Shown here: one piece after another, positions 18,512 through 62,633 of the stretch
Layout of the letters: every line of letters begins with the position of its first letter
How positions within the stretch are numbered: position 1 is the first letter of the stretch
NCBI GenBank assembly: GCA_014730175.1
Contig: WJIR01000026.1
Location: 1,027-65,026 of the forward strand
Reading direction: 5' to 3'
From: Candidatus Zixiibacteriota bacterium
Lineage (GTDB): Bacteria; Zixibacteria; MSB-5A5; UM-FILTER-46-8
DNA: 64,000 bases
Position numbers and translations under genes: made by a program
The notes under the pieces: generated by a model
What the model saw: the letters and a program-made list of their open reading frames with translations, nothing else
Databases searched by the model: none
What the model was told of the DNA's origin: nothing

Positions 18512-18550
18512 TCTCAAAAACTCATCCAGGCTTTTCCTTTTTGTTAATAG

Positions 18551-18576
18551 CTTGGCGGGAGGAAACTCCCGCCAAG
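18551..18576. terminator. 11-bp stem hairpin with GAAA tetraloop (CTTGGCGGGAG-gaaa-CTCCCGCCAAG); probable bidirectional terminator
   Basis: Perfect inverted repeat 22 nt from the stop of the minus-strand 18598 gene, with T/A-rich flanks. Confidence 0.5.
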
Positions 18577-18597
18577 CATTTTGAGCCTTAATTTACT

Positions 18598-20634: not shown

Positions 20635-21186
20635 TTAATTCCGCGGAGATCTTCTGTGTTCCCTTCGCCATTTATAGGGCGGAATAAATTCTTTGACCTC
20701 TGAATTCTCAGCCGTCTCCAGTATTCGCTCCGCGAGTTCCGGGAATCCGTTATCGCCATAGTATGAAACAGTCTCATAAGCCAGTCCCGCTTCGATCAAT
20801 TGTATGGAGAGCAGCTCCCCATCCACGAACACGTGCGCCAGCATTCTACCATAACGATCATCTTGATAAGGTAAATATGAGATCACCTCCGCATTATGGA
20901 GTAAAGCCGCCGTATAAGCGGACGCTTCTCTCCCAAAGGATTGATCCTCGTGGAATCCATGTTCTGGATGCGAAATCTCAGGCGTATCCATACCCAGTAC
21001 CCTTATCCCCTTGCCCCTGTACTCGAAAGTATCGCCATCATCGAGTATTATCTCCGATTTCTCGATCAAGATCACCTCCGATCCATCAGGTATGAATACT
21101 ATATCCTTTTTAACTGGCGATCCGCAGGAACTGAATATTATGGAGACAATAAGCAGGATAAATATTTGTTTGGAAATTATCTTCAT
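20635..21186 (-). CDS. Thermonuclease (staphylococcal-nuclease-like, SNase) lipoprotein
   Basis: Lipobox IFSSCGS after the ATG at 21186. The SNase core contains GKGIRVLGMDTPE...FGREA...RMLAHVFVDGELL. Confidence 0.7.
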   Translation of the reverse strand: MKIISKQIFILLIVSIIFSSCGSPVKKDIVFIPDGSEVILIEKSEIILDDGDTFEYRGKGIRVLGMDTPEISHPEHGFHEDQSFGREASAYTAALLHNAEVISYLPYQDDRYGRMLAHVFVDGELLSIQLIEAGLAYETVSYYGDNGFPELAERILETAENSEVKEFIPPYKWRREHRRSPRN

Positions 21187-21315
21187 TCTTTTCCTCGATT
21201 GAACACACTCTTTGATTGTAATTAACGGGCAATATAATGCCCTCACGGAAGGAGGCAAAATAAAAAGAGGAGGGAATTAGAAATCCCTCCTCCTGCAAAT
21301 AGATCTGTATTCTTT

Positions 21316-24279
21316 CTATTTCAACAAAGTCATCCGTTTGGTGAATACCTTATCCCCTGCAGTAAGTTTATAGAAGTATACTCCGCTGGAATAGTTAGAG
21401 GCATCCCAGGCTACCGAATGCTCTCCGGCATCATTGTATCCGTCAAACAATGTTGCCACGTGCCGTCCTGCGAGATTGTACACGTCCAATTTCACGTTCG
21501 CACTCTTAGGTAAGGTATAAGTGATGCTGGTCTGAGCATTGAACGGATTCGGGTAGTTTCCGACCAATGAATATTGCGAGGGAACGGGTTCACCGATAAA
21601 GTCGCCTTCCAAAAACCAGCTATCAGCGGGATTGTTCGTCAAGGCACCGGAAACCGTGAAATCGAATTGCACCGAATCACACTTATCATCCGGACGATCA
21701 CCGCAATAGGCAATGTAAATGTAAGATCCCTGTGGAGCGAATCCCGGTACTTGCTGGTTGGTATGAGCGTTTAGGGTCTGTCCCGGAGCGAGAGAGAGAT
21801 TATTATAACCGAACTGCTGATAAAAATCTCCATCGTGAATGACTCCGCCCCAGACATCGGTTGTAATAGATGTGTCGCAAACATTGCCGATAAAGCCAGT
21901 CAAACCGAAACTGCCGCCCGGCGGTACTATAACCGGATCATCATCGGGGATCATGTCAACATCGCAGCAGCAATCAGGCTGGGGTAGCTCCCATGTAATT
22001 ACGACATCGTCAACATACCATCCGTCTCGGTTAGTCGAGGAATTCGTATCCAGCCTGAACCTCAGGAGAAAGTCTGTAACACCAGCGAAACTGTCAAGAG
22101 AGTGTATCGCCTGTACAAATGATTCCTGCGTGCCGGTTATGGAGCTGCCGATCTGCGTCCAGTTGTTACCGCCATCATCGGAGCCCTCGATGTAAATATA
22201 ATCGGAACCGCTCTGGAGATTATAGCGATGATAGAATGATAGTTGAATGTTCGACGCATCGGTGAAATCCAATCCCGCTTTCATCGCCATCCAGCAGTCC
22301 GCATTATTAGCGTAGTTCCCTTGCGGGCTGTCATGAAAAGCGAGATTACCGGAATTGGAATGTGTTGCCGATAATCCCCATCTATCATTATTACCACCGG
22401 TTTCCCAGTTGAAGGGACCATTTTCGAAATCATCGACAAACTGTGGAGTGGATGCTTCGGTAATGAACCTGTTATTAGGCGCTCCCACCGGATAAACCTC
22501 ACTCAGCCCATTAGTCTTTTCGGCGTAAACATAGTAATAAACAGATTCACCCATTCCCGGTGTTGGGATGTCAGCCGAGTATGTATCCTGATTATTGGTC
22601 ATCTGGATGGAATTGTAATTCTGAGAACCGTTGTGATTCCAGTAAAGAGTCACGCTGGAAGGATTAATTCCCTCCGAACTGGTTATCTCTCCCGAAAAAT
22701 AAGCTTCGTTAAGTGGAGCCACGTAGGGAAGAGGAACCATGTCGAAGACGATATCCCCTTCCGGATGATAAAATATCGCTTTGGTGGTATTAACCACGCC
22801 CCATCCGTAAGTATTATTTGGGCTGTCCGTATTATCCGCGGTCGCCATCAAAGCCTCACGCACCATCATCGGGGTCCAGTTGGGATGAGCCGAAAGTACC
22901 GCACCTGCGCTTCCGCCCACCAACGGTGTTGAAAGTGATGTGCCACTGGCGTCAGTGAATCCGCCGAGGTCATACGGGTTAGCGCAATCGGTGTCAACGC
23001 CTCGAGCAGTCACTTCAGGCTTAGTGCGATCGTCGTAGGTGGGACCGCGCGAGGAAAAACTGGCTATCTCGCCTTCGGAGTTGACCGCGCCGCAGGCAAT
23101 AACGCTATCCCCGTCGGCAGGAGCAATTAGCGAACCGTTACCCATCCAGCCTTCATTGCCCATTGCTGTGCAGACTGCTATACCATTATATGCGGCGAGG
23201 TCTGCGGCAATCGTAACAATCGTTGTGTTACCATCGAGATCGGAATACTCGTAATCTCCCTGGCCTTCATCGAACCAACGGTAACCGAGTGAGGCTGAAA
23301 TCACTTGTGCCCCGATGGAATCCGCCCACAGAGCGGCAGCAGCCCAGTGATCCTCTTCAATATGCCTTTCCTGGGAAACATCCTCGGTTTTTCCCAGCAG
23401 GAACTCCGCATTAAAGGAGGGACCGTAAAGAGAACCGGAATACTCGCCGCCCAGCGCTGACCAGGTCAAAGTTCCATGGTTTGGCTGATCCCAGGGATCG
23501 CCGTTTTCCCAATCGGTGTCCCCATCGCCCATTACGAAATCCCATTCCGCAATCAAGCGGTTGTCATTGAATATCTCATCGAATGCTACATGACCTTTGC
23601 GGTAACCGGTGTCGAGCATGCAGATAATCACGCCGGTTCCGTCGAATCCCAGCTCATGAGCCGGAGGAACATTTATCTGAAGTAGCTGCGATTCCGAAGG
23701 TCCATAATTGTAGCTGTAATCGCTGATATCGCCGAATCTCGAATATCTATCAGCGCCCTCGATCCTGTCTATCTCTTTCCCCAGCGCCTTTACCCTCTCT
23801 ATTCTCCGAACGAAAGGCAAGGATGAAATAGCCTCAATATTCCCTGTATCGATGTATGCGGAGACAGCGTTCAACCATTTTACGCGGTGCACTATTTCCG
23901 CACCTGAGTTTTCTGTCTCGTTAACATATTCATTATTCACAGGCAGATCGAGAAAATCGACAAGATTATCTCCACGTGTTTTAGCGCGCCTCTTTAACGC
24001 AGCTTCGGTAAGTGCATTCTCAGCTTCAGCCAAAGCATTATCCAGCTCATGCTGAGATGATATTCCCTTGTCCGTGAAATAAATCCAGACCTTTACTCTT
24101 TCGGTATCGAATTTATCAAGTAATTGAGGTTCGATAACCTGCTCAGATTTGGGAAGATAGAGTTTTCTCTGGGGTGCGGCTTTATCTGCGGAAAAACCAG
24201 CGGATGCCGCCCATGTTATTGAAAGCAGCATAATAACTAATATGACACTCCAGCGAGAACATGACATATTTTTGAACAT
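21316..24279 (-). CDS. Secreted subtilisin-like serine protease (peptidase S8) with shared Cys-rich domain and T9SS sorting domain
   Basis: Catalytic triad motifs DTGY (Asp), HGTLT (His) and GTSLSTP (Ser). A signal peptide, the CCCDVDMIPDDDPVIV...AYCGD module and the NYPNPFNAQTSITY...VYNLAGR CTD are also present. Confidence 0.9.
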   Translation of the reverse strand: MFKNMSCSRWSVILVIMLLSITWAASAGFSADKAAPQRKLYLPKSEQVIEPQLLDKFDTERVKVWIYFTDKGISSQHELDNALAEAENALTEAALKRRAKTRGDNLVDFLDLPVNNEYVNETENSGAEIVHRVKWLNAVSAYIDTGNIEAISSLPFVRRIERVKALGKEIDRIEGADRYSRFGDISDYSYNYGPSESQLLQINVPPAHELGFDGTGVIICMLDTGYRKGHVAFDEIFNDNRLIAEWDFVMGDGDTDWENGDPWDQPNHGTLTWSALGGEYSGSLYGPSFNAEFLLGKTEDVSQERHIEEDHWAAAALWADSIGAQVISASLGYRWFDEGQGDYEYSDLDGNTTIVTIAADLAAYNGIAVCTAMGNEGWMGNGSLIAPADGDSVIACGAVNSEGEIASFSSRGPTYDDRTKPEVTARGVDTDCANPYDLGGFTDASGTSLSTPLVGGSAGAVLSAHPNWTPMMVREALMATADNTDSPNNTYGWGVVNTTKAIFYHPEGDIVFDMVPLPYVAPLNEAYFSGEITSSEGINPSSVTLYWNHNGSQNYNSIQMTNNQDTYSADIPTPGMGESVYYYVYAEKTNGLSEVYPVGAPNNRFITEASTPQFVDDFENGPFNWETGGNNDRWGLSATHSNSGNLAFHDSPQGNYANNADCWMAMKAGLDFTDASNIQLSFYHRYNLQSGSDYIYIEGSDDGGNNWTQIGSSITGTQESFVQAIHSLDSFAGVTDFLLRFRLDTNSSTNRDGWYVDDVVITWELPQPDCCCDVDMIPDDDPVIVPPGGSFGLTGFIGNVCDTSITTDVWGGVIHDGDFYQQFGYNNLSLAPGQTLNAHTNQQVPGFAPQGSYIYIAYCGDRPDDKCDSVQFDFTVSGALTNNPADSWFLEGDFIGEPVPSQYSLVGNYPNPFNAQTSITYTLPKSANVKLDVYNLAGRHVATLFDGYNDAGEHSVAWDASNYSSGVYFYKLTAGDKVFTKRMTLLK

Positions 24280-24569
24280 AATTCCTCCTCGGGGAAGTTT
24301 AGTTGAAATTAGTTGTCATCGGTTAGTTTGATTTGAGAAGAAAAACCGGATTCGGTGACAAGTTTATAATAGCTTATCACGTCTATTACCGAATTGTTTC
24401 TATTTGCTTAAGGTAAAACAAATATAATGAATTTTGTTCCGAATGGAAAGCTATTTTCAATACGGTTTATTTTTGAACCCGCTCTGATTTTACAACCACC
24501 AATAATACAATTCAGGTGAAATAACCGCGCGAAGCAAAGAAGCCTCTTAGGTGTTGACAGGATATGAGC

Positions 24570-25808
24570 TTATATATCAATCAACTTATCCCCCGCCGTA
24601 TATTCAGCGACATTAACGGCGTCAATATTCATTAAAGAAGAGATAACATCCTTGATTTTAAGAGAGTTATTCTCGATAAGCTCGATTTTCTTGCGAATAT
24701 CTGCGGGGAGTTCTTCTTCGCTCTTGAGTAACAGGAGCTGGGCTGCTCCCAATACCACCGAAAGTTGATTGTTTACATGATGATTTACGGTAGCCGCTGT
24801 TAACCTGACCAAACCGGCTTTATCCGCATCCAGAAGTTTTCTATAACCAGCGAGGATTAAATGCATCGAAGCGGAATGAGCGAAATCGGGATTAAACCGA
24901 TGCACCAAATCATCGATATTCTTCTCGACTTCTATAGGCGGTCTTCTGAAAAATCCGATGATGCAGAAACCGAAACTATTCTTTTTTCCCTTTAGAGGAT
25001 AAAAGAATAACTCGCGCGCATCATATTTAGCCAGTTCGGAAATCAGCGATTGGGGAAGGTCGGCTTTTGTTAAGGACGCACACCATTTTGACTGGACCAC
25101 CCTCATATCAAACTGTGCTCTCGGGATGGTCAGGTCTGCGCTGAACTCCGACTGAATAGCTCCGGAAGTATCTTCGGAACTGAAGAATAACTCGGCATTG
25201 CTCTCACCCGGGAATAGATAGCCTATTGCACACATCACCGGCGCCGCAATCTTGGTTATTTCTTTAGTAAACAATTCAATCGTGTGCCGCGGGCTTTTGC
25301 TTATTTTAATAGTCCCAACGGAATCCGGTTTACCGATGCCGATTTCCCTTGCCGCCGCTGAGGAGATTAAGTTTACAAATATATCGATTAGATCCTTCTC
25401 GGACTTCTGTAACTTACGGGAATCACGCGATAGGATTACCAGCAGCCCATAGTTAAAATTACCGAATATCAATCCTCTGCATTTTGCTTTCAGCTTATCT
25501 TTCCCGGCAAGGATCAAATCGGCGTTATCTATATCCAGTTTGTAATTTTCTCCGGCTATATGCTCGGTCGACCGGCGATAATTATTAAGAATATTATTTA
25601 GCTCTCCCAGATATTCCTCATTGCCTACTGTCGAAATGGTCGGTTCTCCCGATCCGTCAATCACCAAACAACCTACGGAGCACTCGGGTAGCTGTTTGGC
25701 AAGTAATTCACACACCTCCCCTGTACCGACGCTAATAGGTAATTCAGCGATAGCCCTTGATGCGAGCGAGACGGCTTCGAACTTGGATGCAGGAACAATT
25801 TCGTTCAT
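24570..25808 (-). CDS. GAF-domain sensor protein with a C-terminal histidine-kinase DHp-like domain but no ATPase domain
   Basis: The C-terminus (VNHHVNNQLSVVLGAAQLL...) resembles a HisKA H-box helix and the ORF ends about 60 aa later. The N-terminal two-thirds is GAF-like. Confidence 0.55.
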   Translation of the reverse strand: MNEIVPASKFEAVSLASRAIAELPISVGTGEVCELLAKQLPECSVGCLVIDGSGEPTISTVGNEEYLGELNNILNNYRRSTEHIAGENYKLDIDNADLILAGKDKLKAKCRGLIFGNFNYGLLVILSRDSRKLQKSEKDLIDIFVNLISSAAAREIGIGKPDSVGTIKISKSPRHTIELFTKEITKIAAPVMCAIGYLFPGESNAELFFSSEDTSGAIQSEFSADLTIPRAQFDMRVVQSKWCASLTKADLPQSLISELAKYDARELFFYPLKGKKNSFGFCIIGFFRRPPIEVEKNIDDLVHRFNPDFAHSASMHLILAGYRKLLDADKAGLVRLTAATVNHHVNNQLSVVLGAAQLLLLKSEEELPADIRKKIELIENNSLKIKDVISSLMNIDAVNVAEYTAGDKLIDI

Positions 25809-26463
25809 TTCTATAACACAGCTAAATTTTTCCTCTGTTCCTTGATACGGATTATCTCCACCGTTGTTCGTGCTATTGACGGAGCAGGTTTAATACCCCG
25901 AAAAATCACCAGAGGATTTACCAATTGCACTTACCCCTTTACAGGTTCGGAGTAGATCCCTTACATGATCTCCATAGCCGACTTATCATTTGCCGGGTTC
26001 CAGCGTAAAGGGAAGAAGACTTATAATGCTCGAAAAATAGAGATTAATGCTCGGATGTCAAGTAGAATATAGGTTTGAGCATTATACATCGGTTCTTTGG
26101 ACCATTAACCACAAGTAAATCATTGAGTTTCAAAATCATTTTTGTTAATCTCTGATAGCAATATCTGCCTGACAAAACGCCTACTTTCATACAAACGAGA
26201 TGAGATTCGACAAATATTGAAATCAGCGACACCAACTTTTCCTTGACAACAACCGCCGAACTCGTTTCTTAATATATATAGAATTTGGTCATTCGATATG
26301 TTTGGCCGAAATTTCTTGACCTGTCCCGAACTATGCGGTGTTTTCCAGTGGGTATAATCGCAACATTAGCTCAGGAAAGCGCTATAGTAAATCTTCATGT
26401 ATCTTAGCGATCCAGGAGCATTAATATTTAACTAATGACGCGGATTTTTCAGCGAGGTTAGAA

Positions 26464-27621
26464 ATGAGACACACGGTTTTTACAGTACTGTGTTGCCTGA
26501 TTATATATGGGTGCGGTAACGCAATGCAGGTGATTGATTTCGAAGGACTACCGGATTATTATTATTATTACGGGGGTAATGAGAATATCGATGGTTACTA
26601 TCCCGGGCTTGAGTTCGGACCACACGCAGTGATACTGGACAGCGTTATCTACGGATATAATTCCGAAGGATACCCACCTCATTCCGGTAACTGCGTCCTG
26701 GCGACAATCGGCGCTTCCTATACGCGAGTTGATTTCTCTATTCATACCAATCATGTCGGAATGTGGTACACTTCGTATTTTACCTTTCATGTTGAAGCGT
26801 ACGATGGCAATGATAATCTTTTAGTTTCCACTACGGCTCCCGCAAATTACGGAAGCACAGATTTTGTCGAGGTGAATTCGGTAGGGATTGCTTATGTTAT
26901 ATATCATAATTCGGGAGATCTATTCGTTATCGATGATTTCGAATACGAGGATGAGCCCTGCTGTCTGGATATCGATATGGAGCCGGACGAAGACCCGGTA
27001 ATTGTCAGCCCGGGGGAATCATTCTGGTTTACCGGCTCTATTTTAAATATGTGTGTATATCCGGTCGTGACGGATATCTGGTTGATGGTGGATGTTCCCG
27101 GATATGGACTGTATGGTCCCCTGGCAAGAAACCTTAATCAAACCGTAGAACCCGGGCAGATCTTGACCCGCCACATGGCTCAAGCGGTTCCCCTCGAAGC
27201 TCAACCGGGTGTCTATAGTTATGTCGCTTATTGTGGTGATTTCCCGAATTATCTGTGTGATGGAACTTCGTTTCCATTTACGATTGTAGAAGGTTCGTCA
27301 TCAGAAGGCAGCAGCACATGGCATAATAGAACCGCTTTTGATTTCAAGGCGGCTCCCGATAAATCAAGTCTGATGGACAGTTACCCCAATCCTTTCAATT
27401 CCCGAACAAACATCCAATTCGAGCTAAGCTCCGAATGTCATGCACGACTGGAGATTTATAACATGTTGGGGCAAAGAATAACGGTTCTTGTAGACGAATA
27501 CTTAAATGCAGGTGAGTACTCGGTGCAATGGGATGCGGGCGACCTTCCCAGCGGCATTTATCTGGCAAGACTTTATGAGGATGGCAAGACTACTACCGTT
27601 CGGATGAGTTTAATAAAGTGA
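26464..27621 (+). CDS. Secreted T9SS cargo (lipo)protein with shared Cys-rich domain and T9SS sorting domain
   Basis: Signal/lipobox (LIIYGCGNA), a Cys-rich module (CCLDIDMEPDEDPVIV...AYCGD...CD), and a CTD (SYPNPFNSRTNIQF...IYNMLGQ). Confidence 0.8.
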   Translation: MRHTVFTVLCCLIIYGCGNAMQVIDFEGLPDYYYYYGGNENIDGYYPGLEFGPHAVILDSVIYGYNSEGYPPHSGNCVLATIGASYTRVDFSIHTNHVGMWYTSYFTFHVEAYDGNDNLLVSTTAPANYGSTDFVEVNSVGIAYVIYHNSGDLFVIDDFEYEDEPCCLDIDMEPDEDPVIVSPGESFWFTGSILNMCVYPVVTDIWLMVDVPGYGLYGPLARNLNQTVEPGQILTRHMAQAVPLEAQPGVYSYVAYCGDFPNYLCDGTSFPFTIVEGSSSEGSSTWHNRTAFDFKAAPDKSSLMDSYPNPFNSRTNIQFELSSECHARLEIYNMLGQRITVLVDEYLNAGEYSVQWDAGDLPSGIYLARLYEDGKTTTVRMSLIK

Positions 27622-42300: not shown

Positions 42301-42311
42301 AAGCATCGGTT

Positions 42312-42330
42312 AAGGGGGTTGTTCCCCCTT
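42312..42330 (+). terminator. Hairpin AAGGGGG-ttgtt-CCCCCTT just after the CBS gene
   Basis: 7-bp stem seen in the sequence; the 3' tail is not U-rich. Confidence 0.3.
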
Positions 42331-42373
42331 ACACCGTCAACTATTTGGATTTAAAATATCAAAGGAGAATAAT

Positions 42374-42790
42374 ATGCGGTATAAGGTGGTGGAGGCGCTA
42401 TATATCACCGATGATGTTATAAAGAAAGTTTCCGCTGTAGAGAGGAAGGAACTCGAAAGTAGGGAGCGGATTTATCGAGGGATAAACCATTCCCGGATCT
42501 CAAAGATAAAACCGCAATTGTAGTAGATAATGGGCTTGCTACGGGAGCTTCGATGTGAGCCGCTGTGGAGTCACTAAAGGAATTTAATACGCGACAAATC
42601 GTTTTAGCTGTACCTACCGGAGCGCAGTCCACCTGCAAAGATTACCAGAAGGGGCTAATGAGGTTGTATGCGTTGAAACGCCGAAACATCTCGGCAGCGT
42701 CGGTTAACCCTAATTGGAATTCCCACGGGTTAGCGATGAAGAGGGGTATGCTTTATGAAAGCGGGTGAAGCATCGCGACGCTTAAATACT
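42374..42790 (+). pseudogene. Degraded phosphoribosyltransferase (PRTase) gene: only the C-terminal half remains, with at least 3 in-frame stops and a frameshift
   Basis: Conceptual translation gives RERIYRG...KPQL**VDNGLATGASM*AAVESLKEFNTRQIVLAVP, then ANEVVCVETPKHLGSVG in the +1 frame. This matches the PRTase VVDDGLATGATM / VPV / EVVCLETP region. An RBS plus ATG at 42374 is retained. Confidence 0.6.
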
Positions 42791-42883
42791 ATTATTACCA
42801 CAAATCGCTTGTAATTCCGAATTATTATTCCTACATTCTTATCCAGGAATATCCATAAACACTGCTTGAAAAGGAGTGATGTT

Positions 42884-44341
42884 TTGAGACCGACGCTTAG
42901 ATTTTTAAGTGATCAACTAATAGAGCAAATTGTATCCGAAGCGCAGGAGCTGCTGTCCAAAATAGGTGTGGAGATCCATAACGATAATGTTACTTCGCTT
43001 CTGGCGGACAATGGAGCCAGGGTGGACAACGAAAAAAAACGGGTTTTTATTTCGCGTGACCTAATTGAATCATGCGTAAAAGCCGCCCCGAAAGCCTTTA
43101 AACTCTACGATGTCTTCGGAGAAGAAGCGGTTGATCTCTCCGGATACAACATTAATTTTGTCCCCGGCTCGGCATCGATTAATATCCTCGACTACGAATC
43201 GGATCGTATTCGCAGACCTGTTACGTCCGATATTGTGGACTTCACCAAATTGATGAGCGGAATGCAGTATATCGATTCGCAAGCTACGTCGATTGTGCCA
43301 TCCGACGTTCCCGAGAAAATTTCGGATAGTTATCGATTGTACCTCAGTTTAATTCACTGCAGTAAGCCGGTAGTTACCGGAGCATTCACAATCGACGCAT
43401 TCAATGTGATGAAAGATATGCAGGTCGCCATACGCCGTTCGCGGGACGAGCTGAAATCCAAACCGTTAACGATCTTTTCCTGCTGTCCTACCGCTCCGTT
43501 GAAATGGTCTAATGTTACTTCGCAGAACCTGCTCGATTGTGCTGAATATTTCATTCCGGTGGAATACATTTCGATGCCGCTGACCGGATTCATGGCGCCG
43601 GTTACCTTAGTCGGTACATTGATACAACATACTGCGGAAACATTGAGCGGAATAGTTATCAGCCAGTTGGCGAATCCCGGCGCTCCGGTATTGTATGGCG
43701 GTTCGCCGTCGGTTTTTGATATACGTTACGAAACAACCCCCATGGGGGATGTCGGTACCATGATGATCGATTGCGCATATAATGAAGTCGGAAAACATTT
43801 GGGGCTGCCCACCCAGGCATATATCGGTCTCAGCGATTCCAAGCAGCTTGACGCCCAAGCGGGGCTGGAAACCTCTATGGGCGCGACTCTGGCGGCGCTC
43901 TCCGGTATCAACAGTATATCCGGTCCCGGCATGCTGGATTTCGAAAGCTGTTTCAGCTTGGAGAAACTGGTTGTCGATAATGAAATCTGCGGCATGATCC
44001 AAAGGATGGTTCAGGGAATTGAACCAAAGGAGGATTTCCCCTGTTTACCCCATTTTGAGGAAATGATGAAAGAACAGCACCTTTTGATTTATGACCATAC
44101 GAGGAAGTATCTGAAAAGCGAAATTCATTTCCCCGGAAACGTAATAAACAGAGCGAACAAAGCGCGCTGGGAAGAGGAAGGAAGCCTGACTCTGAGGGAA
44201 AGGGCGCATAAGGAGGTGGAACGAATAATCGAGGGATATGAGGCGCCGGAACTCAGCGAGGAAATTATAATGGAATTGAGAAATCTAATGGAAACCGAAG
44301 CCAAGAAGCATGGAATGGATAGGTTACCTGTTTCGGATTGA
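42884..44341 (+). CDS. MttB-superfamily (non-pyrrolysine) methyltransferase; substrate-specific corrinoid methyltransferase (glycine betaine or another quaternary-amine type)
   Basis: About 485-aa TIM-barrel MttB family pattern with no in-frame amber codon. The likely TTG start at 42884 follows an AAGGAG RBS, whereas the ORF-track start is at 42866. Confidence 0.8.
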   Translation: MRPTLRFLSDQLIEQIVSEAQELLSKIGVEIHNDNVTSLLADNGARVDNEKKRVFISRDLIESCVKAAPKAFKLYDVFGEEAVDLSGYNINFVPGSASINILDYESDRIRRPVTSDIVDFTKLMSGMQYIDSQATSIVPSDVPEKISDSYRLYLSLIHCSKPVVTGAFTIDAFNVMKDMQVAIRRSRDELKSKPLTIFSCCPTAPLKWSNVTSQNLLDCAEYFIPVEYISMPLTGFMAPVTLVGTLIQHTAETLSGIVISQLANPGAPVLYGGSPSVFDIRYETTPMGDVGTMMIDCAYNEVGKHLGLPTQAYIGLSDSKQLDAQAGLETSMGATLAALSGINSISGPGMLDFESCFSLEKLVVDNEICGMIQRMVQGIEPKEDFPCLPHFEEMMKEQHLLIYDHTRKYLKSEIHFPGNVINRANKARWEEEGSLTLRERAHKEVERIIEGYEAPELSEEIIMELRNLMETEAKKHGMDRLPVSD

Positions 44342-45054
44342 TGAGAGAGATAATCGAAATAGACGCAGGGCAAATATCGCCGTCGATTGAATCTGTGCTG
44401 AAATGCCAGGGAATTCCGGAAAACGCCATTCCCGATACCCGGATTTTGAGATTAGCGGAAGAAGCCATTTCCCTTTTTGAGGAACATGGTAGGCCGAAAG
44501 CTATCCTAAGAGAAATCACCAAAAAGGACTTTGAAAATATCTACCGTGGCGAAGGCAAAAACGCCGAGGAAACACCGATTGAGAGTATATACAATTCGTC
44601 AGATTTCCTTGCGCTTTTTGCGGTGACGGTTGGAGAGGATATCAGCACGCTGATATCACGATTGTTTCAGGAGAACGATTTTGCGCAGGGATCCATGCTC
44701 GATTCGGTTGCTTCGGAGAGCGCCGAAAAATCGGCACAGACTGTTGAAGCAATCTACGAAAACTACCTGCGGCAGCGGGACTCATTTCCGGATTCATACG
44801 GAATTTTGCGATTCAGCCCCGGCTATTGCGGATGGCACCTTAGCGCACAAAAGAAGTTATTCGATTTTCTCAATCCGGAGGAGATAGGTATTACATTGAG
44901 GGAAAGCTGCTTGATGGAGCCATTGAAATCGATCAGCGGCGTGATTATCGTGGGAATGAAAGAGATTTTTAAGTTCGAAGACAATTACTGGTTTTGTGCG
45001 GAATGCGAGGATCATTCCTGCCGGGAAAGAATCGAACATGTATCGAATTCATGA
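44338..45054 (+). CDS. MetH reactivation-domain homologue (Met_synt_B12-like), standalone
   Basis: LRFSPGYCGWHLSAQKKLFDFL...IGITLRESCLMEPLKSISG matches the MetH activation domain RxxPGY...LTES..M.P..SVSG. Its ATG overlaps the MttB stop (ATGA). Confidence 0.7.
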   Translation: MMREIIEIDAGQISPSIESVLKCQGIPENAIPDTRILRLAEEAISLFEEHGRPKAILREITKKDFENIYRGEGKNAEETPIESIYNSSDFLALFAVTVGEDISTLISRLFQENDFAQGSMLDSVASESAEKSAQTVEAIYENYLRQRDSFPDSYGILRFSPGYCGWHLSAQKKLFDFLNPEEIGITLRESCLMEPLKSISGVIIVGMKEIFKFEDNYWFCAECEDHSCRERIEHVSNS

Positions 45055-45076
45055 TTCTGAATATACAGGAGCCGAA

Positions 45077-45715
45077 ATGGAAATATTAAAACAGATATCC
45101 GAATCCCTTGAGAAAGGCGATTTCAACCGGGTTGGCGAATTAACTCAACAGGCATTGGATCAAGGGCTCGATCCGAAAGTAATTCTCGATGATGGACTGA
45201 TTGCCGGAATGTCTATCGTGGGACAGAAATTCAAAGTACACGAGATTTTTCTTCCGGATGTCCTTCTGGCAGCCAAGGCGATGTATGCCGGAATGGATTT
45301 ATTGAAACCTCTGATGATTAAGGAAAATATACCATCAATTGGCAAGGTGGTGATGGGAACGGTTCAGGGGGATCTGCATGATATCGGCAAGAATCTGGTA
45401 AGTATAATGCTTAAAGGCGCTGGACTGGATGTTATCGACCTGGGTAACGATGTGCCGCCGGCGAAATTTGTGGATACAGCTATTTCGGAAAACGCAGATG
45501 TTATCGGTATATCCACCCTGCTTACCACCACCATGCCGGTCATGGGGGAAGTGGTGGAGATGGCTAAGGAACGAGGTGTGTATGGTAAGGTTAAGATTAT
45601 CGTCGGGGGCGCCCCGTTAAATGCCGACTATGCCGAACAGATCGGCGCCGATGCTTATTGCTTCGACGGTGTGAACGCCGTTGACTGTGTTAAACGATTT
45701 TTGGGAGCCGGATAA
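45077..45715 (+). CDS. Corrinoid (cobalamin)-binding protein, MtbC/MtgC-like
   Basis: B12-binding DxHxxG motif (GDLHDIGKNLV), a Rossmann-like B12-binding domain, and an N-terminal helical cap. The ATG at 45077 follows an AGGAG RBS. Confidence 0.85.
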   Translation: MEILKQISESLEKGDFNRVGELTQQALDQGLDPKVILDDGLIAGMSIVGQKFKVHEIFLPDVLLAAKAMYAGMDLLKPLMIKENIPSIGKVVMGTVQGDLHDIGKNLVSIMLKGAGLDVIDLGNDVPPAKFVDTAISENADVIGISTLLTTTMPVMGEVVEMAKERGVYGKVKIIVGGAPLNADYAEQIGADAYCFDGVNAVDCVKRFLGAG

Positions 45716-46614
45716 TGCGGGATATTCTGGATCGCATTAAAAACGGTGAAGTTCTTCTCGCAGACGGCGCAATGGGCACCATGCTTATCGAAAAAGGGCT
45801 TAAGATCGGCGACTGTCCCGAAAGACTGAATCTTGACAAACCGGAGCTACTTGGCGAGATAGCCCGCCAATATTTCGACGCCGGCGCCGATATAATCCAG
45901 ACCAATACATTCGGAGGTTCCCCGCTGAAGTTAGCTCAATACTCACTGGAGAGCGAAACCGAAGAACTGAATATCGCCGCGGTAAATGCAGTTCGTCAGG
46001 TGGTTGGTAATAATGCCTATATTTACGGTTCCTGCGGACCAAGCGGCAGATTGCTTAAACCGTATGGCGATACGGAACATCAGGAGGTTTTGGATAGTTT
46101 CAAAAGACAGATAACGGCGCTTATTTCGGAAGGCGCCGATTTGATTTGTGTTGAAACAATGACTGATCTGGAAGAAGCACGGCTTGCAATTAAAGCAGCC
46201 AAATCGATAGATTCTTCAATTCCGGTTTCGGCAACGATGACTTTTGATGTGACTCCGAGGGGCTTTTTTACGATAATGGGAGTTGATATTCAGCATGCGG
46301 TGAAAGGACTGATTGAAGCCGGGGCTGATATGATCGGTTCCAATTGCGGAAACGGAATTGAGAATATGGTAAAGATTGCCGAGGAGTTCCGCAGACTTAC
46401 TTCAATACCTCTGGTGATTCAATCCAATGCCGGTCTGCCGGAAATGATTGATGGCAGAATTGAATATTCTGAGTCGCCGGAGTTTATGGCTGAGCGCTGT
46501 AAACAACTAATTGACATCGACGTAAATGTAATCGGCGGATGTTGCGGAACCACGCCCGAGCATATTTCGGCATTTCGGAATGTCATTGATAAGCATAATT
46601 CCAAGAATTCGTAG
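45715..46614 (+). CDS. Homocysteine S-methyltransferase domain protein (MetH N-terminal/BHMT-like, zinc-dependent)
   Basis: Zn-ligand motifs GSNCG and GGCCGTTPEHI are conserved. The start ATG overlaps the corrinoid protein stop. Confidence 0.8.
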   Translation: MRDILDRIKNGEVLLADGAMGTMLIEKGLKIGDCPERLNLDKPELLGEIARQYFDAGADIIQTNTFGGSPLKLAQYSLESETEELNIAAVNAVRQVVGNNAYIYGSCGPSGRLLKPYGDTEHQEVLDSFKRQITALISEGADLICVETMTDLEEARLAIKAAKSIDSSIPVSATMTFDVTPRGFFTIMGVDIQHAVKGLIEAGADMIGSNCGNGIENMVKIAEEFRRLTSIPLVIQSNAGLPEMIDGRIEYSESPEFMAERCKQLIDIDVNVIGGCCGTTPEHISAFRNVIDKHNSKNS

Positions 46615-46680: not shown

Positions 46681-47523
46681 ATGAGTAACAATTCAATAAG
46701 ACAACCAGCATTCGCAGGTAGTTTTTACCCGGGTGATCCGGTGGAGCTGAGCAAAACAATCGCCGATTTTTTCGCCGATACACCTAAACAGGAAGTTGAC
46801 GGAGAGATTGTCGGTTTGGTTTCTCCCCACGCCGGATACATTTACTCCGGTGGTGTGGCTGCGGTCAGCTATAAGTTGTTAGAAGGTGACCAGTATGATA
46901 CAGTGGTGGTTATTGCACCTTCCCATGCAGCTTATTTCGATGGCGTCTCGGCATTTCCGGGAGATACATATAATACTCCGCTTGGACCGGTAGAGGTTGA
47001 CAATGATATCGTAAAGGAGCTAACCCGAGACTCCGGAATCATCACGGAAAGCTATGACGGACATACGGGCGCTGGCGGCAGAGCTGAGCATTCTCTGGAA
47101 GTGCAGTTGCCGTTCCTGCAGATAGTTCTGCCGAAGTTTAGGCTGGTTCCTCTGGTGATGGGAAACCAGAGTTATGAAACCTGCAGGATTTTGGCAGACG
47201 ATTTAAACAAAGCATTGAAAAATAAAAATGCCCTCGTTGTGGCTTCTACCGACCTATCACATTTTCACCCAACGGGAGAAGCGGGAAAGCTGGACAGCGC
47301 ATTCATTGAATATTTTGAGGCGTATCGACCTAAGGAATTAGCGGAAGCATTGTCCAAGCGGAGTTGCGAGGCTTGTGGAGGGGGCCCGGTGGTTGCGCTC
47401 ATGCTGTATGCGCAGCATTTGGGGAATCCTCGGGCAAAGAAACTGATGTATCGAGATTCCTCGGCGGTTTCCGGAGACACCTCCAATGTGGTTGGATATC
47501 TGAGCGGAGTTATAACCATTTAA
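46681..47523 (+). CDS. MEMO1-family protein (AmmeMemoRadiSam system protein B)
   Basis: N-terminal FAGSFYPGDP hallmark and the His/Asp motifs of the MEMO1 fold. Confidence 0.85.
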   Translation: MSNNSIRQPAFAGSFYPGDPVELSKTIADFFADTPKQEVDGEIVGLVSPHAGYIYSGGVAAVSYKLLEGDQYDTVVVIAPSHAAYFDGVSAFPGDTYNTPLGPVEVDNDIVKELTRDSGIITESYDGHTGAGGRAEHSLEVQLPFLQIVLPKFRLVPLVMGNQSYETCRILADDLNKALKNKNALVVASTDLSHFHPTGEAGKLDSAFIEYFEAYRPKELAEALSKRSCEACGGGPVVALMLYAQHLGNPRAKKLMYRDSSAVSGDTSNVVGYLSGVITI

Positions 47524-54360: not shown

Positions 54361-54717
54361 ATGGACATTCAGAAATTAACAGAGATTGCCAAACTTAAGG
54401 AATACATAGAAATTAGCGGCTTTTTAAATAGTGGTTTGTACTATATTGACCTGATTGCGGATAGAGTTCAGGATCTATTTACCGAAACATCGGATTCAAG
54501 TAAGCTGTATAGAGCGGCAATAATCGCTTTGCTTATAACTTCGCCTATAATAATCATCAAGAAACTGGTACAGTTTACATTGAAACTGATAATCCCTACC
54601 GCGATTGCAGTTATAGCGCTCGGATATGTCTATCCTCTGCCGCCAGTTCAACATCTTACGGCGTCAGTACTAATCGGATTAACTATCATGTTCATTGTAG
54701 GGAGAAAAAATAAATGA
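54361..54717 (+). CDS. Hypothetical membrane protein (118 aa)
   Basis: Two C-terminal TM helices. Its stop overlaps the start of the next gene (ATGA). Confidence 0.45.
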   Translation: MDIQKLTEIAKLKEYIEISGFLNSGLYYIDLIADRVQDLFTETSDSSKLYRAAIIALLITSPIIIIKKLVQFTLKLIIPTAIAVIALGYVYPLPPVQHLTASVLIGLTIMFIVGRKNK

Positions 54718-59170: not shown

Positions 59171-59332
59171 TAGCCCGTATAATTCATAAAAGCCAGCAAA
59201 CCGTAGCCGAAGGCTTGTCCTTCGGGGATTTTACAACAATAACAATTTACGGTCTGGAATTCGGGGGCGAGAAAAGAGCCGGAAGCGCAAGGCTTCCGCT
59301 ACCGATTAGGGACTTTATGGATAATCCGGGCT
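59171..59332 (+). repeat. Intergenic structured repeat, copy B (about 88% identical to 8501-8656)
   Basis: Direct alignment to copy A. Hairpins are CCGAAGG-cttgt-CCTTCGG and CGGAAGC-gcaag-GCTTCCG. The copy abuts the stop of the minus-strand permease gene. Confidence 0.65.
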
Positions 59333-60938
59333 AACCGATCAAATCTCTTTCCTTCAAGAAATCACGGGCAACTTCCGAGGGTTGCCGTTTTTCTTCGTCT
59401 ACTTCGTAGTTCAGCTCCTGCATGGTTTTATCATTAAGGATTCCGGCTAAAACCTTTAGAGCCGTTTCCAACTCGGGGTACGTTTCGAGAACTTCGCTGC
59501 GGACAACCGGCGCCGCATAGTATGCAGGGAAGAAATTACTATCATCCTCCAACGGCTGTAAATTGTAGGCGGCTATCCTGCCATCAGTAGCAAAGGCGCA
59601 AATTACATCCACCTCCCCGTTGGAGACCGCCTGGTACATAATGGAAGGATCCAAATCAATAACCTGAGCAAATTCCAAGCCGTATTCTTTACGTAGCCCG
59701 GGGAAACCATCGGGACGCTCTACGAATTCCGCCGTAAAACCGGCTGTAAGCTCATCTGCTATCGGAGCCAGATCAGATATACCGGTTAAATCATACCGCT
59801 TTGCATCCTCTTTCCGAACCGTAATCGCGTACGTGTTGTTGAATCCGAAAGGGGGCAGCCACCGGGCATCAAACCGTTCCCTGTAGCTTTGCTTTATCAG
59901 TTCTAACACCTCGCCCGATTCCGGAATTACATCTTTGTTCAGTATAGCGGTCAAGGCGGTGCCGGTATATTCTGCATACAGGTCGATTGCATTACTTACC
60001 AGCGCGCCATGACATATCATAGTCCCTCCCAGGTTGAATTTCTTATTCACCCTGATATTAGTACGGTCTTCCACTATCTGAGTCATCAATTCGCCCAGTA
60101 TAAACTGCTCGGTAAAATTTTTAGTCGCGATAGTAACGCTGCCGCTCACCGATGAATCGCTATCGGATGTAAAAGCCGATGACAACGGTAAATCTCTCTG
60201 GGAATAATAGGCAGCCAGGCCCGCAATTACAATAAACAAAGGCGCTAATATCGCCAGGATACGGATAACACGCTTGGAAATCTTCCCGGATGCATCCCCC
60301 TTTTTCTTGTATTCAATCCCCCATTGACTGGTCGCGATAGCTGCATCTACCAGAAGGGCGAGTATGGCAGCGGGAATCGCTCCCAATAGGATCAGGTTTG
60401 TGTTTGATAATGCAAGTCCCCTGTTAATAAATTGCCCCAACCCACCGGCGCCGATAAACGCCGATAGAGTAGCGATACCGACGCCAACAACCGCCGCTGT
60501 TCTTATACCGGCCACTATAACCGGCAGAGCCAAAGGGACTTCAACGATACTAAGCCGCTGTCTCGGTGTCATCCCGATCCCCCTTGCCGCTTCCAGCACC
60601 GACGGCGATACCCCTTCGATACCTGCGAGAGTGTTACGAACGATCGGCAAAAGGGCATACATCACCAGCGCGATTATGGCAGGAACCGTGCCTATTTTCT
60701 CCAGTAGTGCCAAAAGAATCGCCAGCATCGCCAAACTCGGTATCGTTTGCAATATTCCAACCGCTCCCGTTAATGTCCCGCGAAGCCATCTTATTCTAAC
60801 TGCGAGAATACCGAGAGGAATACCGAGGCTTATCGCAATACCGGTGGATATGCCGGTCAGGATTACATGCTCTCCGGTTCTTAGCAATAGTTCCGAGAGG
60901 CGACTTCCGACCACGTCGCTTATGAAGCCGCCGAACAT
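59331..60938 (-). CDS. Osmoprotectant (glycine betaine/choline/carnitine-type) ABC transporter, permease fused to substrate-binding domain (OpuCB-OpuCC-like)
   Basis: N-terminal BPD permease with EAA loop (EAARGIGMTPRQRL), a C-terminal OpuAC-family binding domain, and overlap with the ATPase gene. Confidence 0.8.
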   Translation of the reverse strand: MFGGFISDVVGSRLSELLLRTGEHVILTGISTGIAISLGIPLGILAVRIRWLRGTLTGAVGILQTIPSLAMLAILLALLEKIGTVPAIIALVMYALLPIVRNTLAGIEGVSPSVLEAARGIGMTPRQRLSIVEVPLALPVIVAGIRTAAVVGVGIATLSAFIGAGGLGQFINRGLALSNTNLILLGAIPAAILALLVDAAIATSQWGIEYKKKGDASGKISKRVIRILAILAPLFIVIAGLAAYYSQRDLPLSSAFTSDSDSSVSGSVTIATKNFTEQFILGELMTQIVEDRTNIRVNKKFNLGGTMICHGALVSNAIDLYAEYTGTALTAILNKDVIPESGEVLELIKQSYRERFDARWLPPFGFNNTYAITVRKEDAKRYDLTGISDLAPIADELTAGFTAEFVERPDGFPGLRKEYGLEFAQVIDLDPSIMYQAVSNGEVDVICAFATDGRIAAYNLQPLEDDSNFFPAYYAAPVVRSEVLETYPELETALKVLAGILNDKTMQELNYEVDEEKRQPSEVARDFLKERDLIG

Positions 60939-61696
60939 CAGGTGATATCTCCGTATAGCCGAAGCTGTTTGGCGGGTTTTTCGAAAAGTTCACGAACGAA
61001 ATCTGTACCCGGCGTATTTACTATCTCTTCAGCAGTGCCAACCTGCTCCAGGTTGCCATCATGCAGGACTGCGATCCTGTCCCCCAGCGTGAGCGCTTCA
61101 AAAATATCATGCGTGACGAAGACGATGGTTTTGCTCAGTTTCTCCTTCAGGGAAAGAAGCTCTTGCTGTAATGTGTCCCTGGTCAATGCATCCAGCGCTC
61201 CAAAAGGTTCATCCATCAGCAGATATGAAGGATCAGCGGCCAAGGCTCTCCCAACGCCAACTCTCTGCTGCTGTCCGCCGGAAAGGGCCTCGGGGTAACG
61301 GTTTGCATAAGTAGATGGATCAAGGCCGATTATTTCCAGGAGCTCATGCGCTTTTTCGCGTCTTTCCTTTTTACTCCAGCCGAGGAGACGCAGAACCATA
61401 GCTACGTTTTCTTCGATGGTAACATGCGGAAAAAGCCCGATCCCCTGAAACACATATCCGATCTTACGCCTTAGCGAGATCGGGTCTTGAGTGGATACAT
61501 CTTCGCCGTCGACCTCGATACTTCCCGAAGAGAGCTCCAGCAATCGGTTAGCCAGCTTCAATACGGTAGTTTTGCCGGAACCGGAAGAACCAAGCAGCAC
61601 CATTGTCTCCCCTTCGTGCACTTCGAAGGATACGTCTTTAACCGCATAGTTCTCCCCTCCATCGAATGACTTATAAACACTATCAAAGACAATCAT
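60938..61696 (-). CDS. Osmoprotectant ABC transporter ATP-binding protein (OpuCA-like)
   Basis: Walker A GSSGSGKTT, signature LSGGQQQRVGVGRAL and Walker B LLMDEPFGALD. Confidence 0.85.
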   Translation of the reverse strand: MIVFDSVYKSFDGGENYAVKDVSFEVHEGETMVLLGSSGSGKTTVLKLANRLLELSSGSIEVDGEDVSTQDPISLRRKIGYVFQGIGLFPHVTIEENVAMVLRLLGWSKKERREKAHELLEIIGLDPSTYANRYPEALSGGQQQRVGVGRALAADPSYLLMDEPFGALDALTRDTLQQELLSLKEKLSKTIVFVTHDIFEALTLGDRIAVLHDGNLEQVGTAEEIVNTPGTDFVRELFEKPAKQLRLYGDIT

Positions 61697-61715: not shown

Positions 61716-62633
61716 TCACCGCGGAACTGGCTGAGCGATTTTCTGTGGCGGGAATTGTTCCCTGACCGAGCGCATCTCGTTAATCAGAATATCTATTTGT
61801 TCGGCCGGCGCCGCAACATATAGATCAGCATAATGAGTACCTGCTTCTTCGAATTCGGAAGCGTCAAGTCCCTTCTCGCGCAAGATTTCTAACACCTTAA
61901 CTCTCTCAACCTCGTCAACAAAGTCCCTTTGGGGAAGCCTGATACCTTCAACTCGCTGGAAATCGAATCCGAATCGCTTGAAACAATCAATAATCGGTTC
62001 CGAATCGAATATGCGGAGAATCGTAATAACAGCCAATGGTCCAAAATCGGAGGGATGATCCTTACCAAAATATGGGAGAATCTTGTTAAGTGTCTTTTCG
62101 GTTACGTAACCGATAGCGCCGGTACTGACCAATAGATTACAGCTACGTATCCAGCCTTGTTCGTCCTCGGTCGGCATGACCTCCGGATTCTCAAAATCCC
62201 TTGCAATACCGCCGTCAAGCAGGCCTGAGCCCAAAGCGAATTTAATCGCCGGTCCGGAATTATCCAAACCTACGCTCCGAATATTACAAATCGGTGAAGT
62301 AACATTCAACCACATTCGGGTAACCTCACAACAGGATGCGTAATCCTCCGGCGCGCGGGACGCAAAAAACCCGATGATCTCCTCGAATGAACAACCGTAC
62401 CTGACGAAAGCGGAGCCGATCCCATAGGAACAGCCTACATCCAGCATCTGCACCGGCCAGATTTCCCCGTTATTTTTCCTTAGTAACTCTGCCGCCGCAA
62501 TGCAGTACGGACGCGCTTGTTCGCCGATCTGATAATTATGTCGTGCCATTTTGGCAATATATGCATGTGGTGTTGGCGCAGTATAAACATCGTTGAAATT
62601 GGCTTTTGCTTCATTTTCGTGTGAATAACCCAA
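61716..62633 (-). CDS. Putative class I SAM-dependent methyltransferase-like protein
   Basis: Degenerate motif I (MLDVGCSYGIG) and an acidic post-I motif (VGLDNS). The call is weak. Confidence 0.4.
   Translation of the reverse strand: MGYSHENEAKANFNDVYTAPTPHAYIAKMARHNYQIGEQARPYCIAAAELLRKNNGEIWPVQMLDVGCSYGIGSAFVRYGCSFEEIIGFFASRAPEDYASCCEVTRMWLNVTSPICNIRSVGLDNSGPAIKFALGSGLLDGGIARDFENPEVMPTEDEQGWIRSCNLLVSTGAIGYVTEKTLNKILPYFGKDHPSDFGPLAVITILRIFDSEPIIDCFKRFGFDFQRVEGIRLPQRDFVDEVERVKVLEILREKGLDASEFEEAGTHYADLYVAAPAEQIDILINEMRSVREQFPPQKIAQPVPR

Follow-up and report, generated by a model that had tools for sequence, protein, structure and literature searches.

The closest described relative of the system examined here is a gene cluster reported by Williams et al. 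(2022, PMC9324843) from metagenome-assembled genomes (MAGs) of Candidatus Electryoneota and from 'diverse bacteria'. In the passage given to it there, the cluster combines a homologue of the methyltransferases MttB and MtgB that lacks pyrrolysine, a homocysteine S-methyltransferase, and corrinoid and activation proteins. The barrel is placed in a clade separate from MtgB and MttB, and a novel corrinoid-dependent methionine synthesis is hypothesized, with the methyl donor left unnamed. A second point of reference is Ruegeria pomeroyi, in which genetics has shown that the corrinoid protein MtgC and the pterin-binding MtgD are each essential for both glycine betaine demethylation and methionine synthesis (Mausz et al. 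2025, PMC12478193). In the model of these authors MtgC interacts with an MttB-family barrel, with MtgD and with the homocysteine-binding MtgE, and the genetic evidence from the R. pomeroyi and P. inhibens systems concerns the MtgC, MtgD and MtgE subunits. Folate-independent methionine synthases fed by corrinoid proteins have also been described by Price et al. (2021, PMC7857596), who do not mention MttB. Here we analyse a four-gene operon at positions 42884-46614 of a 64 kb stretch of Zixibacteria DNA (the window, from contig WJIR01000026.1), and argue that it probably encodes a methionine synthase of this general, folate-independent kind.

Both the arrangement and the methionine hypothesis have been published before (PMC9324843). 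Full-text literature searches returned no biochemical characterisation of the cluster, which is consistent with an earlier annotation of this DNA (the original prediction) that called the arrangement experimentally uncharacterised. New here are a counted survey of synteny, the negative result for a pterin-binding module near the operon and the failure of the MtgB pocket residues to match, as well as a pocket signature for the wider clade, acceptor swaps in sister clades and a four-cysteine feature of the reactivation protein.

The operon consists of four co-directional open reading frames (ORFs) on the forward strand. They encode an MttB-superfamily TIM-barrel methyltransferase without pyrrolysine (MT1, 42884..44341, 485 amino acids), a standalone MetH-type reactivation protein with the S-adenosylmethionine (AdoMet, SAM)-binding domain (Act, 44341..45054, 237 amino acids), a corrinoid (cobalamin)-binding protein (CoP, 45077..45715, 212 amino acids) and a homocysteine S-methyltransferase barrel (MT2, 45715..46614, 299 amino acids). 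Each of the four domain assignments exceeds its Pfam curated cutoff, so the four-module content given in the original prediction is borne out. Gene 1 starts at the TTG at 42884, seven bases past an AGGAG; the resulting 485 residues are the usual length among homologues, and a deposited protein (P0001) contains the product at 100% identity. For gene 2 the ATG at 44341 is the most likely start, rather than the TTG at 44338 proposed earlier, as the 237 residues that follow are identical to the deposited protein P0121. The TGA stop of gene 1 overlaps this ATG (TGATG, 44339-44343) and genes 3 and 4 are joined in the same manner (TAATG, 45713-45717), but genes 2 and 3 are separated by a 22 nt spacer with its own AGGAG site. 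The overlapping stop and start codons that had been predicted throughout are therefore found at the first and last junctions and not at the middle one. The four genes are one conserved, translationally coupled unit.

The conservation of this unit is best seen in a survey of related loci, made with one genome per species. At least 591 relatives were confirmed, of which the best 80 (L001-L080) were analysed; their barrels are 63-71% identical to MT1. The hosts of these 80 include Zixibacteria, Ignavibacteria, Bacteroidota, Chlorobiaceae, Phycisphaerae, other Planctomycetota, WOR-3 and TA06, as well as Cloacimonadota, Gemmatimonadota, Aminicenantes, Marinimicrobia, Fermentibacteria, Krumholzibacteria, Spirochaetes and Terriglobales. 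Sixty of the loci are informative, having at least 2.6 kb of downstream sequence. The order MttB, Act, CoP, homocysteine methyltransferase is identical in 51 of the 60, across more than 15 phyla, and in three others Act alone is missing. With one gene order shared by so many loci in so many phyla, the arrangement is far beyond chance. Replacement acceptor modules were considered for the nine incomplete loci and rejected, since the neighbours sampled in seven of them are TPR, ankyrin, ABC, SpoVR, sulfotransferase and similar proteins.

The first of the four proteins, MT1, belongs to the MttB superfamily: it matches PF06253 with an E-value of 2e-79 and 267.3 bits (cutoff 25), covering profile positions 29-495 of 500. 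Its score against the model of MttB proper (TIGR02369) is 365.7 bits, under the equivalog cutoff of 525. The reading frame is uninterrupted, and Leu316 aligns with pyrrolysine 334 of the Methanosarcina barkeri MttB (residue X of 7xcl), a position that is Leu in 71 of 73 orthologues. These results agree with the earlier assignment to the non-pyrrolysine part of the superfamily, and the lack of pyrrolysine argues that MT1 is not MttB proper. Compared with these two members of the superfamily, MT1 is 29% identical to MtgB of Desulfitobacterium hafniense and 27.5% identical to M. barkeri MttB.

The pocket of MT1 can be compared with that of MtgB, whose glycine betaine site was defined by mutagenesis and a ligand-bound structure in a 2026 study (PMC13080624). 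There, Y97 and F356 hold the quaternary amine and R312 and H348 hold the carboxylate; an equivalent of R312 is common to MtgB, MtcB, MtpB, MthB and MtyB, and binds the acidic group of the substrate. The four positions correspond to S96, Q311, S346 and E354 in MT1, so that both carboxylate ligands and both aromatic residues are gone. Among the 73 orthologues the equivalents of S96, Q311 and E354 are invariant and that of S346 is kept in 72; the arginine shared by the enzymes for acidic quaternary amines is thus a glutamine throughout. Since S/Q/S/E replace Y/R/H/F, MT1 would appear to be neither an MtgB nor a member of the group acting on acidic quaternary amines. The donors put forward in the original prediction (glycine betaine, proline betaine, carnitine and gamma-butyrobetaine) consequently find no support here. 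The loss of the Arg and His ligands, together with the gain of an invariant Glu, suggests instead a methyl donor without an acidic group.

Judged by these residues, the clade of MT1 is a distinct one, with the pocket signature S96/Q311/L316/S346/E354. An exhaustive search of 1.84 billion representatives shows that the relatives of MT1 form a graded series from 59% down to about 28% identity, and that a signature S-[Q/H]-x-S-E recurs down to about 35% identity. This differs from the Y-R-L-H-F of MtgB and from the G-Y-Pyl-Y-G of MttB. It could serve as a practical annotation marker that separates the clade from MtgB-type betaine enzymes.

A trace of the relationship to pyrrolysine-containing enzymes is visible at the nucleotide level. 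In 12 of 20 orthologues (L002, L003, L004, L007, L020, L021, L023, L026, L041, L043, L056 and L079) the Rfam family PYLIS_3 (RF02510, the pyrrolysine insertion sequence of mttB) scores above its gathering threshold inside the coding sequence of the MttB-like gene, e.g. at 7946-8045 of L003. The matches begin on the codon that corresponds to Leu316 or no more than 2 nt away from it, and these genes contain no UAG; the MT1 copy of the window gives no match. The matches probably reflect coding homology to true mttB. Their position within the coding sequence led us to reject the idea of a recoding element.

The homocysteine barrel, MT2, matches PF02574 (S-methyl_trans) with 227.5 bits (cutoff 22, E-value 4e-67) over profile positions 1-282 of 283. 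The cysteines of its GSNCG and GGCCGT motifs align with the zinc-ligand cysteines of the Thermotoga maritima MetH (NCS and GGCCGT), the homocysteine module of which is matched with an E-value of 8e-51. These cysteines are at least 95% conserved in 48 orthologues, in keeping with the three zinc ligands that had been predicted, and DGAxGT, NTFG, ETMTD, GSNCG, NAG and GGCCGTTP are all conserved to the same level or nearly so. Against NCBIfam, MT2 scores best with the YitJ N-terminal model (281 bits); PRK07534, the bacterial 'BHMT' model, is next with 224.5 bits, and the scores for MetH are 181.7 and 143 bits. The MmuM model, of the type that uses SAM or S-methylmethionine, comes lowest at 93 bits. 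This low score and the operon-linked corrinoid protein are indirect hints that methyl-cobalamin, rather than SAM, S-methylmethionine or betaine, may be the methyl source of MT2.

The corrinoid protein itself, CoP, is composed of a helical cap (PF02607, E-value 2e-21) and a Rossmann-type B12 domain (PF02310, E-value 2.5e-29), both above cutoff. The DxHxxG motif noted earlier is present as GDLHDIGKN, of the His-on type, and is conserved across 53 sequences, as are SxLLTTT and GGAP. Among structures in the PDB, CoP scores 186 bits with the Moorella protein 1Y80 and 151 bits with MttC, compared with about 102 bits for the B12 domain of MetH. Among NCBIfam models it scores 219.8 bits with MtgC_2 (cutoff 370), 195.9 with pyl_corrinoid (215.3) and 185.9 with MtbC (350), reaching none of these cutoffs, and 135 bits with MetH. 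By these scores CoP is nearer to the standalone corrinoid proteins of methylotrophy, of the MttC/MtgC type, than to the MetH domain. This has consequences for the description of the locus as a split MetH: the label holds for the homocysteine and reactivation modules, but not for the corrinoid protein. The system is a chimera of an MttB/MttC-like pair with MetH-like homocysteine and reactivation modules, and not simply a MetH in pieces.

The reactivation protein, Act, scores 52.4 bits with PF02965 (Met_synt_B12; E-value 6.7e-14, cutoff 25). Its motifs LRFSPGY and LRESCLMEPLKSISG align with IRPAPGY and LTESFAMWPGASVSG of the Escherichia coli MetH, such that R157-F-S-P-G-Y falls on R1134-PAPGY. 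The RxSPGY signature reported earlier is thus present in the window, but it is not general: P-G-Y is invariant, and the Arg of RxxxGY is found in just 25 of 52 cross-phylum orthologues. The best sequence match of Act in the PDB is T. maritima TM0269 (1J6R). A profile of the Act family reached TM0269 alone among PDB sequences, and not E. coli MetH, for which reason the AdoMet contacts were mapped through the RxxxGY and SxSG motifs only. The AlphaFold (AF2) model (mean predicted local distance difference test score 91.6) nonetheless confirmed the MetH reactivation fold at the level of prediction. The top 19 Foldseek matches in the PDB are all MetH reactivation domains, the first being TM0269 with an E-value of 3e-13 and a TM-score, normalised to the target, of 0.79.

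Act also has a feature of its own. Four cysteines, C163 in SPGYCGW and C219, C222 and C227 in a C-terminal CxxCxxxxC, are invariant in 50 of the 52 orthologues, these being the ones whose ORF includes the C-terminal tail. The tail is the sole lower-confidence part of the model. TM0269 has no Cys at the position of C163 (SPGYGDL as opposed to the SPGYCGW of the Act family), and the four-cysteine feature is absent from its aligned part. The four invariant cysteines, together with the patchy occurrence of the RxxxGY arginine, raise the possibility of a putative metal or Fe-S site and of an altered dependence on SAM.

Pfam scans of 51 ORFs covering the window found no Pterin_bind (PF00809), MtrH or RamA-type protein. 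The pterin-binding domain of E. coli MetH (residues 354-649) gave zero tblastn matches in the window and in 89 related loci (1.02 Mb in total, with about 7 kb around the operon covered per related locus), while the homocysteine and B12 domains of the same reference protein matched 60 and 73 loci. No MetH-type pterin barrel was thus found in the neighbourhood, as had been predicted. Nor were DUF1638/RamA activators of the Ruegeria type found in the window scans or among recurrent neighbours. The locus is accordingly not a canonical MetH (TIGR02082): the proteins are separate, each scores far under the cutoff of 1010.85, and there is no PF00809. An MtgBCDE-type system is likewise not seen within the window and the recurrent neighbours, which hold no pterin-binding MtgD and no RamA/DUF1638.

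More distant lineages give some indication of how the barrel is used. Locus L083 has a barrel 48% identical to MT1 in the order homocysteine methyltransferase, Act, MttB, and its homocysteine methyltransferase is 44% identical to MT2; the different order indicates that the barrel clade was linked to a homocysteine methyltransferase independently. In L085-L087 a 47% identical barrel with the pocket S-H-L-S-E lies behind a pyl_corrinoid-type protein. Two of these loci (L086, 961-4823; L087, 3-3868) continue with a BluB/nitroreductase-like gene and then an MtaA/CmuA-family methyltransferase (225 bits, cutoff 235), and by gene content each is a classic MT1-corrinoid-MT2 cluster. L085 shows the CoP-MttB pair only, its contig ending past the barrel gene, and carries Trm56, which is typically archaeal. 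The pairing with a homocysteine methyltransferase in L083 and with an MtaA/CmuA-family MT2 in L086 thus suggests that the clade acts as an MT1 on the donor side, to which different acceptor modules can be joined. Such behaviour would favour an external methylated substrate over 5-methyl-tetrahydrofolate (methyl-THF).

We propose the following scheme. MT1 would bind a methylated donor and pass the methyl group to the Co(I) of CoP. MT2, using zinc, would move it from methyl-Co(III) to the thiolate of homocysteine, giving methionine and Co(I). Should the cobalt lapse to Co(II), Act would rescue it, presumably by reductive methylation with SAM, and the four-cysteine site may take part. With no MetH-type pterin barrel near the operon, such a relay from donor to cobalt to homocysteine is the most economical reading, and the one at which Williams et al. 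arrived independently. R. pomeroyi and P. inhibens (PMC12478193) provide a precedent, in that homocysteine-binding subunits and corrinoid proteins work together there as standalone polypeptides. We consider it rather likely that these four proteins together would act as a folate-independent methionine synthase. The direct synthesis of methionine given in the original prediction is therefore retained as the best reading, and its quaternary-amine (betaine) donors are not. A more far-reaching version we regard as tentative and on balance doubtful. In it, many uncultured anaerobic lineages (Zixibacteria, WOR-3, Cloacimonadota, Phycisphaerae, Ignavibacteria and others) would depend mainly or solely on the operon for methionine synthesis, the barrel would define a new class of MttB substrates and Act would carry a four-cysteine metal or Fe-S site not recognised before. 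The donor would then be either a non-acidic methylated compound new to corrinoid methylation or an endogenous carrier, for instance methyl-THF bound by a non-homologous barrel.

Several points weigh against the relay. Every chemical step, the direction of methyl flow and the nature of the donor we infer from homology and gene linkage. In six of the 60 informative loci the barrel has no homocysteine module nearby. By analogy with MtgD in R. pomeroyi, an unlinked pterin-binding or MtrH-type methyltransferase could share CoP. The SAM dependence of the reactivation step is uncertain, given the uneven occurrence of the RxxxGY arginine described above. Finally, the cluster is not always the sole methionine synthase of its host, since the Ca. 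Electryoneota MAGs are stated, in the account of the cluster by Williams et al., to carry canonical MetH as well (PMC9324843).

The sharing of CoP is the basis of an alternative that we hold unlikely, though not negligible: the homocysteine, corrinoid and reactivation proteins would be a split MetH whose folate subunit is encoded elsewhere, and the barrel would methylate mainly tetrahydrofolate (THF) in a catabolic pathway, reaching homocysteine incidentally. The modules of R. pomeroyi and P. inhibens are indeed dispersed and a single corrinoid protein serves MtgB, MtgD and MtgE (PMC12478193), and the second-best NCBIfam match of MT2 is the 'BHMT' model PRK07534, homologues of which Mausz et al. 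equate with MtgE. That said, the barrel is here the first gene of a coupled unit kept as a block in 51 of 60 loci, no pterin-binding domain turns up in the window or, to a distance of about 7 kb from the operon, in 89 loci, and reactivation is of the MetH type, with no Ruegeria-type RamA or DUF1638 seen. It is also conceivable, if rather improbable, that the operon carries out the canonical methionine synthase reaction, with the MttB-like barrel binding methyl-THF or another endogenous carrier as a non-homologous replacement of the pterin barrel. The barrel is conserved in the manner of a housekeeping protein, being 63-71% identical between phyla and invariant at many polar residues; there is no linked transporter or regulator, the variable genomic context is that of a self-sufficient biosynthetic module, and polar and acidic residues line the pocket in place of aromatic ones; moreover, some MAGs with an 'MttB' reportedly have no MetH (PMC12484752). 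However, pterin binding is known for no member of the MttB superfamily, and a sister barrel of the same pocket type, 47% identical to MT1, belongs to a methylotrophy cluster with a corrinoid protein and an MtaA-like MT2, which points to an external methylated substrate. The canonical MetH attributed to the Electryoneota MAGs in the cited account (PMC9324843) also counts against a replacement.

Two further alternatives name an external substrate. A demethylase similar to MtgB, MtpB, MtcB or MtyB would make the operon a betaine, carnitine or gamma-butyrobetaine:homocysteine methyltransferase fed by the OpuC-like importer of the original prediction, a combination that we judge very unlikely. MT1 is in the MttB superfamily without pyrrolysine, as are all characterised betaine enzymes, it has the same Leu as MtgB at the pyrrolysine position, MtgC_2 is the best NCBIfam match of CoP, and an OpuAC-type importer does exist in the window (59331-61696, permease at 59331-60938). 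Yet its permease has no counterpart near the operon in any of the 80 loci, and the 220 flanking ORFs show no enrichment of any transporter family, so the proposed link to the importer does not hold. In the pocket, the near-invariant S/Q/S/E of 73 orthologues takes the place of Y97/R312/H348/F356, with Gln for R312, and the 29% identity to MtgB is scarcely above the 27.5% to MttB. The least likely of the alternatives, in our estimation, is trimethylamine (TMA) or another simple methylamine, used without pyrrolysine by a methylamine:homocysteine methyltransferase. The pyrrolysine-type MttB model is the only NCBIfam match of MT1, the PYLIS_3 matches in 12 of 20 orthologues show relatedness to true mttB at the nucleotide level, CoP falls just under the pyl_corrinoid cutoff (195.9 and 215.3, as above), and the pocket offers no ligands for a carboxylate but contains an invariant Glu. 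Against this, MttB is considered to require pyrrolysine for the activation of methylamines, and MT1 has Leu in its place; both the score, well under the MttB family cutoff, and the low identity to MttB set MT1 apart. The four-protein relay to homocysteine, with a donor that is more likely a methylated compound lacking an acidic group than a carboxylated betaine, remains our preferred interpretation.

The surroundings of the operon offer few clues to the donor. All-versus-all clustering of 794 ORFs found no recurrent further neighbour family, and when the two ORFs closest to the operon on either side (the 220 flanking ORFs) were scanned with Pfam, no family occurred in more than three loci; conserved neighbours were accordingly rejected as an indication of the donor. 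The MEMO-like gene downstream (46681-47523) is real and encodes an AmmeMemoRadiSam system protein B (TIGR04336, 275 bits), but the link drawn to it earlier fails, as it has no counterpart near the operon in the 80 loci; the 51 window ORFs scanned include neither an AMMECR1 nor a radical-SAM partner for it. Nor do an M23 peptidase and a CBS protein of the window recur beside the operon elsewhere. Even the closest relative, L091, with 89% protein identity, has entirely different flanking genes (CsgG and others), which shows that the operon has been relocated between close relatives. The four-gene module is complete in itself and travels as one block.

Upstream of the operon lies a gap of 584 nt. 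A comparison of this gap (window 42301-42883) with positions 5699-6000 of L091 shows that its final 110 nt or so alone are conserved. This part includes the AGGAG and both hexamers of a putative promoter-like element, TTGTAA-N17-TACATT (42809..42837, forward strand), about 45 nt upstream of the start of gene 1. Its role as a promoter is a prediction, and it scores below the threshold of a consensus promoter scan. No Rfam family reaches its gathering threshold in the window, including the 584-nt gap, a scan of the 700-nt upstream region gave matches at chance level only, and SAM, cobalamin and THF riboswitches are absent from the 20 orthologous loci scanned. A riboswitch or leader RNA was on these grounds rejected as a clue to the pathway. 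One of the 20, L016 from a Phycisphaerae MAG, has two copies of the Acido-Lenti-1 RNA motif above the gathering score (6685-6730, reverse strand, and 6840-6886, forward strand; 66 and 41 bits), 115-315 nt upstream of the MttB-like gene, and none occurs in the other 19.

Some further features of the window can be recorded. At 9013-12126 a flavin-dependent thymidylate synthase (ThyX) adjoins a ribonucleotide reductase with a TSCPD domain at the C-terminus of its large subunit. We take such a tail to be typical of adenosylcobalamin-dependent class II enzymes, which would make this a second cobamide-dependent function on the contig. At 13593-27621 there are five proteins with a C-terminal sorting domain for type IX secretion (Por_Secre_tail), among them an S8 subtilase and a protein with a beta-propeller, which fits an organism of the Fibrobacteres-Chlorobi-Bacteroidetes (FCB) group. 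Two ORFs have no Pfam match at an E-value of 0.001 or less: one of 305 amino acids (61716-62633, reverse strand), directly 5′ of the gene for an OpuA-type ATPase and on the same strand, and one of 118 amino acids (54361-54717, forward strand).

The preferred interpretation would have several implications if it is correct. Many environmentally abundant and mostly uncultured bacteria would make methionine in a B12-dependent manner that bypasses methyl-folate, and inferences from metagenomes about methionine auxotrophy, cobamide dependence and one-carbon flow would change. The barrel is routinely annotated as a 'trimethylamine methyltransferase' in such data. For example, a 2025 study of mercury (PMC12484752) reports some MAGs of Zixibacteria, Spirochaetota and Desulfobacterota in which 'MttB' is the only corrinoid methyltransferase, without MetH; this 'MttB' was read as a TMA enzyme and TMA-driven mercury methylation was proposed. 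The substrates of the MttB superfamily would also extend past pyrrolysine-dependent TMA and the carboxylated or phosphorylated quaternary amines, and the sister lineages would provide a natural swap of acceptor modules, a homocysteine barrel for an MtaA-type MT2, on one clade of donor barrels.

How, then, does the locus compare with systems that are better understood? T. maritima TM0268 (1Q7M) and TM0269 (1J6R) are the closest solved relatives of MT2 and Act, and TM0269 is a precedent for a separate reactivation polypeptide. However, TM0268 still has the pterin-binding barrel and the B12 domain fused in, and its donor is methyl-THF. The D. hafniense MtgB/MtgC/MtgA and methanogen MttB/MttC/MtbA systems share with the window the logic of an MT1, a corrinoid protein and an MT2, and CoP is of their type; they differ in the acceptor, which is THF (MtgA) or coenzyme M (MtbA), and in reactivation by RamA. 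Their pockets differ too, with Y/R/H/F in MtgB and pyrrolysine in MttB, in contrast to S/Q/S/E and Leu in MT1. MesA, MesB and MesC (PMC7857596) are, like the proposed synthase, folate-independent and are thought to take methyl groups from corrinoid proteins, but they are MetE-type barrels, of another fold family than PF02574, and their corrinoid donors belong to the Wood-Ljungdahl pathway or to methanogenesis.

Among systems with genetic evidence, MtgBCDE of R. pomeroyi and the split MetH of P. inhibens come nearest, as they too join an MttB-family barrel to standalone corrinoid and homocysteine-binding subunits and link demethylation to methionine synthesis. Their genes are dispersed, MtgD is essential, reactivation is of the RamA/DUF1638 type, MtgB is proposed to act on glycine betaine and the hosts are aerobic. 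The window, on the other hand, has a single compact operon to which no pterin module is linked; its reactivation is of the MetH type, its pocket is not of the betaine type, and it is found in lineages that are largely uncultured and known from MAGs only. The cluster of Williams et al. (PMC9324843) shares the content of this operon and the same hypothesis. It comes from other hosts than the Zixibacteria of the window, and the one-paragraph genomic description of it gives no pocket residues, counted synteny, sister contexts or biochemistry, the first three of which are set out here.

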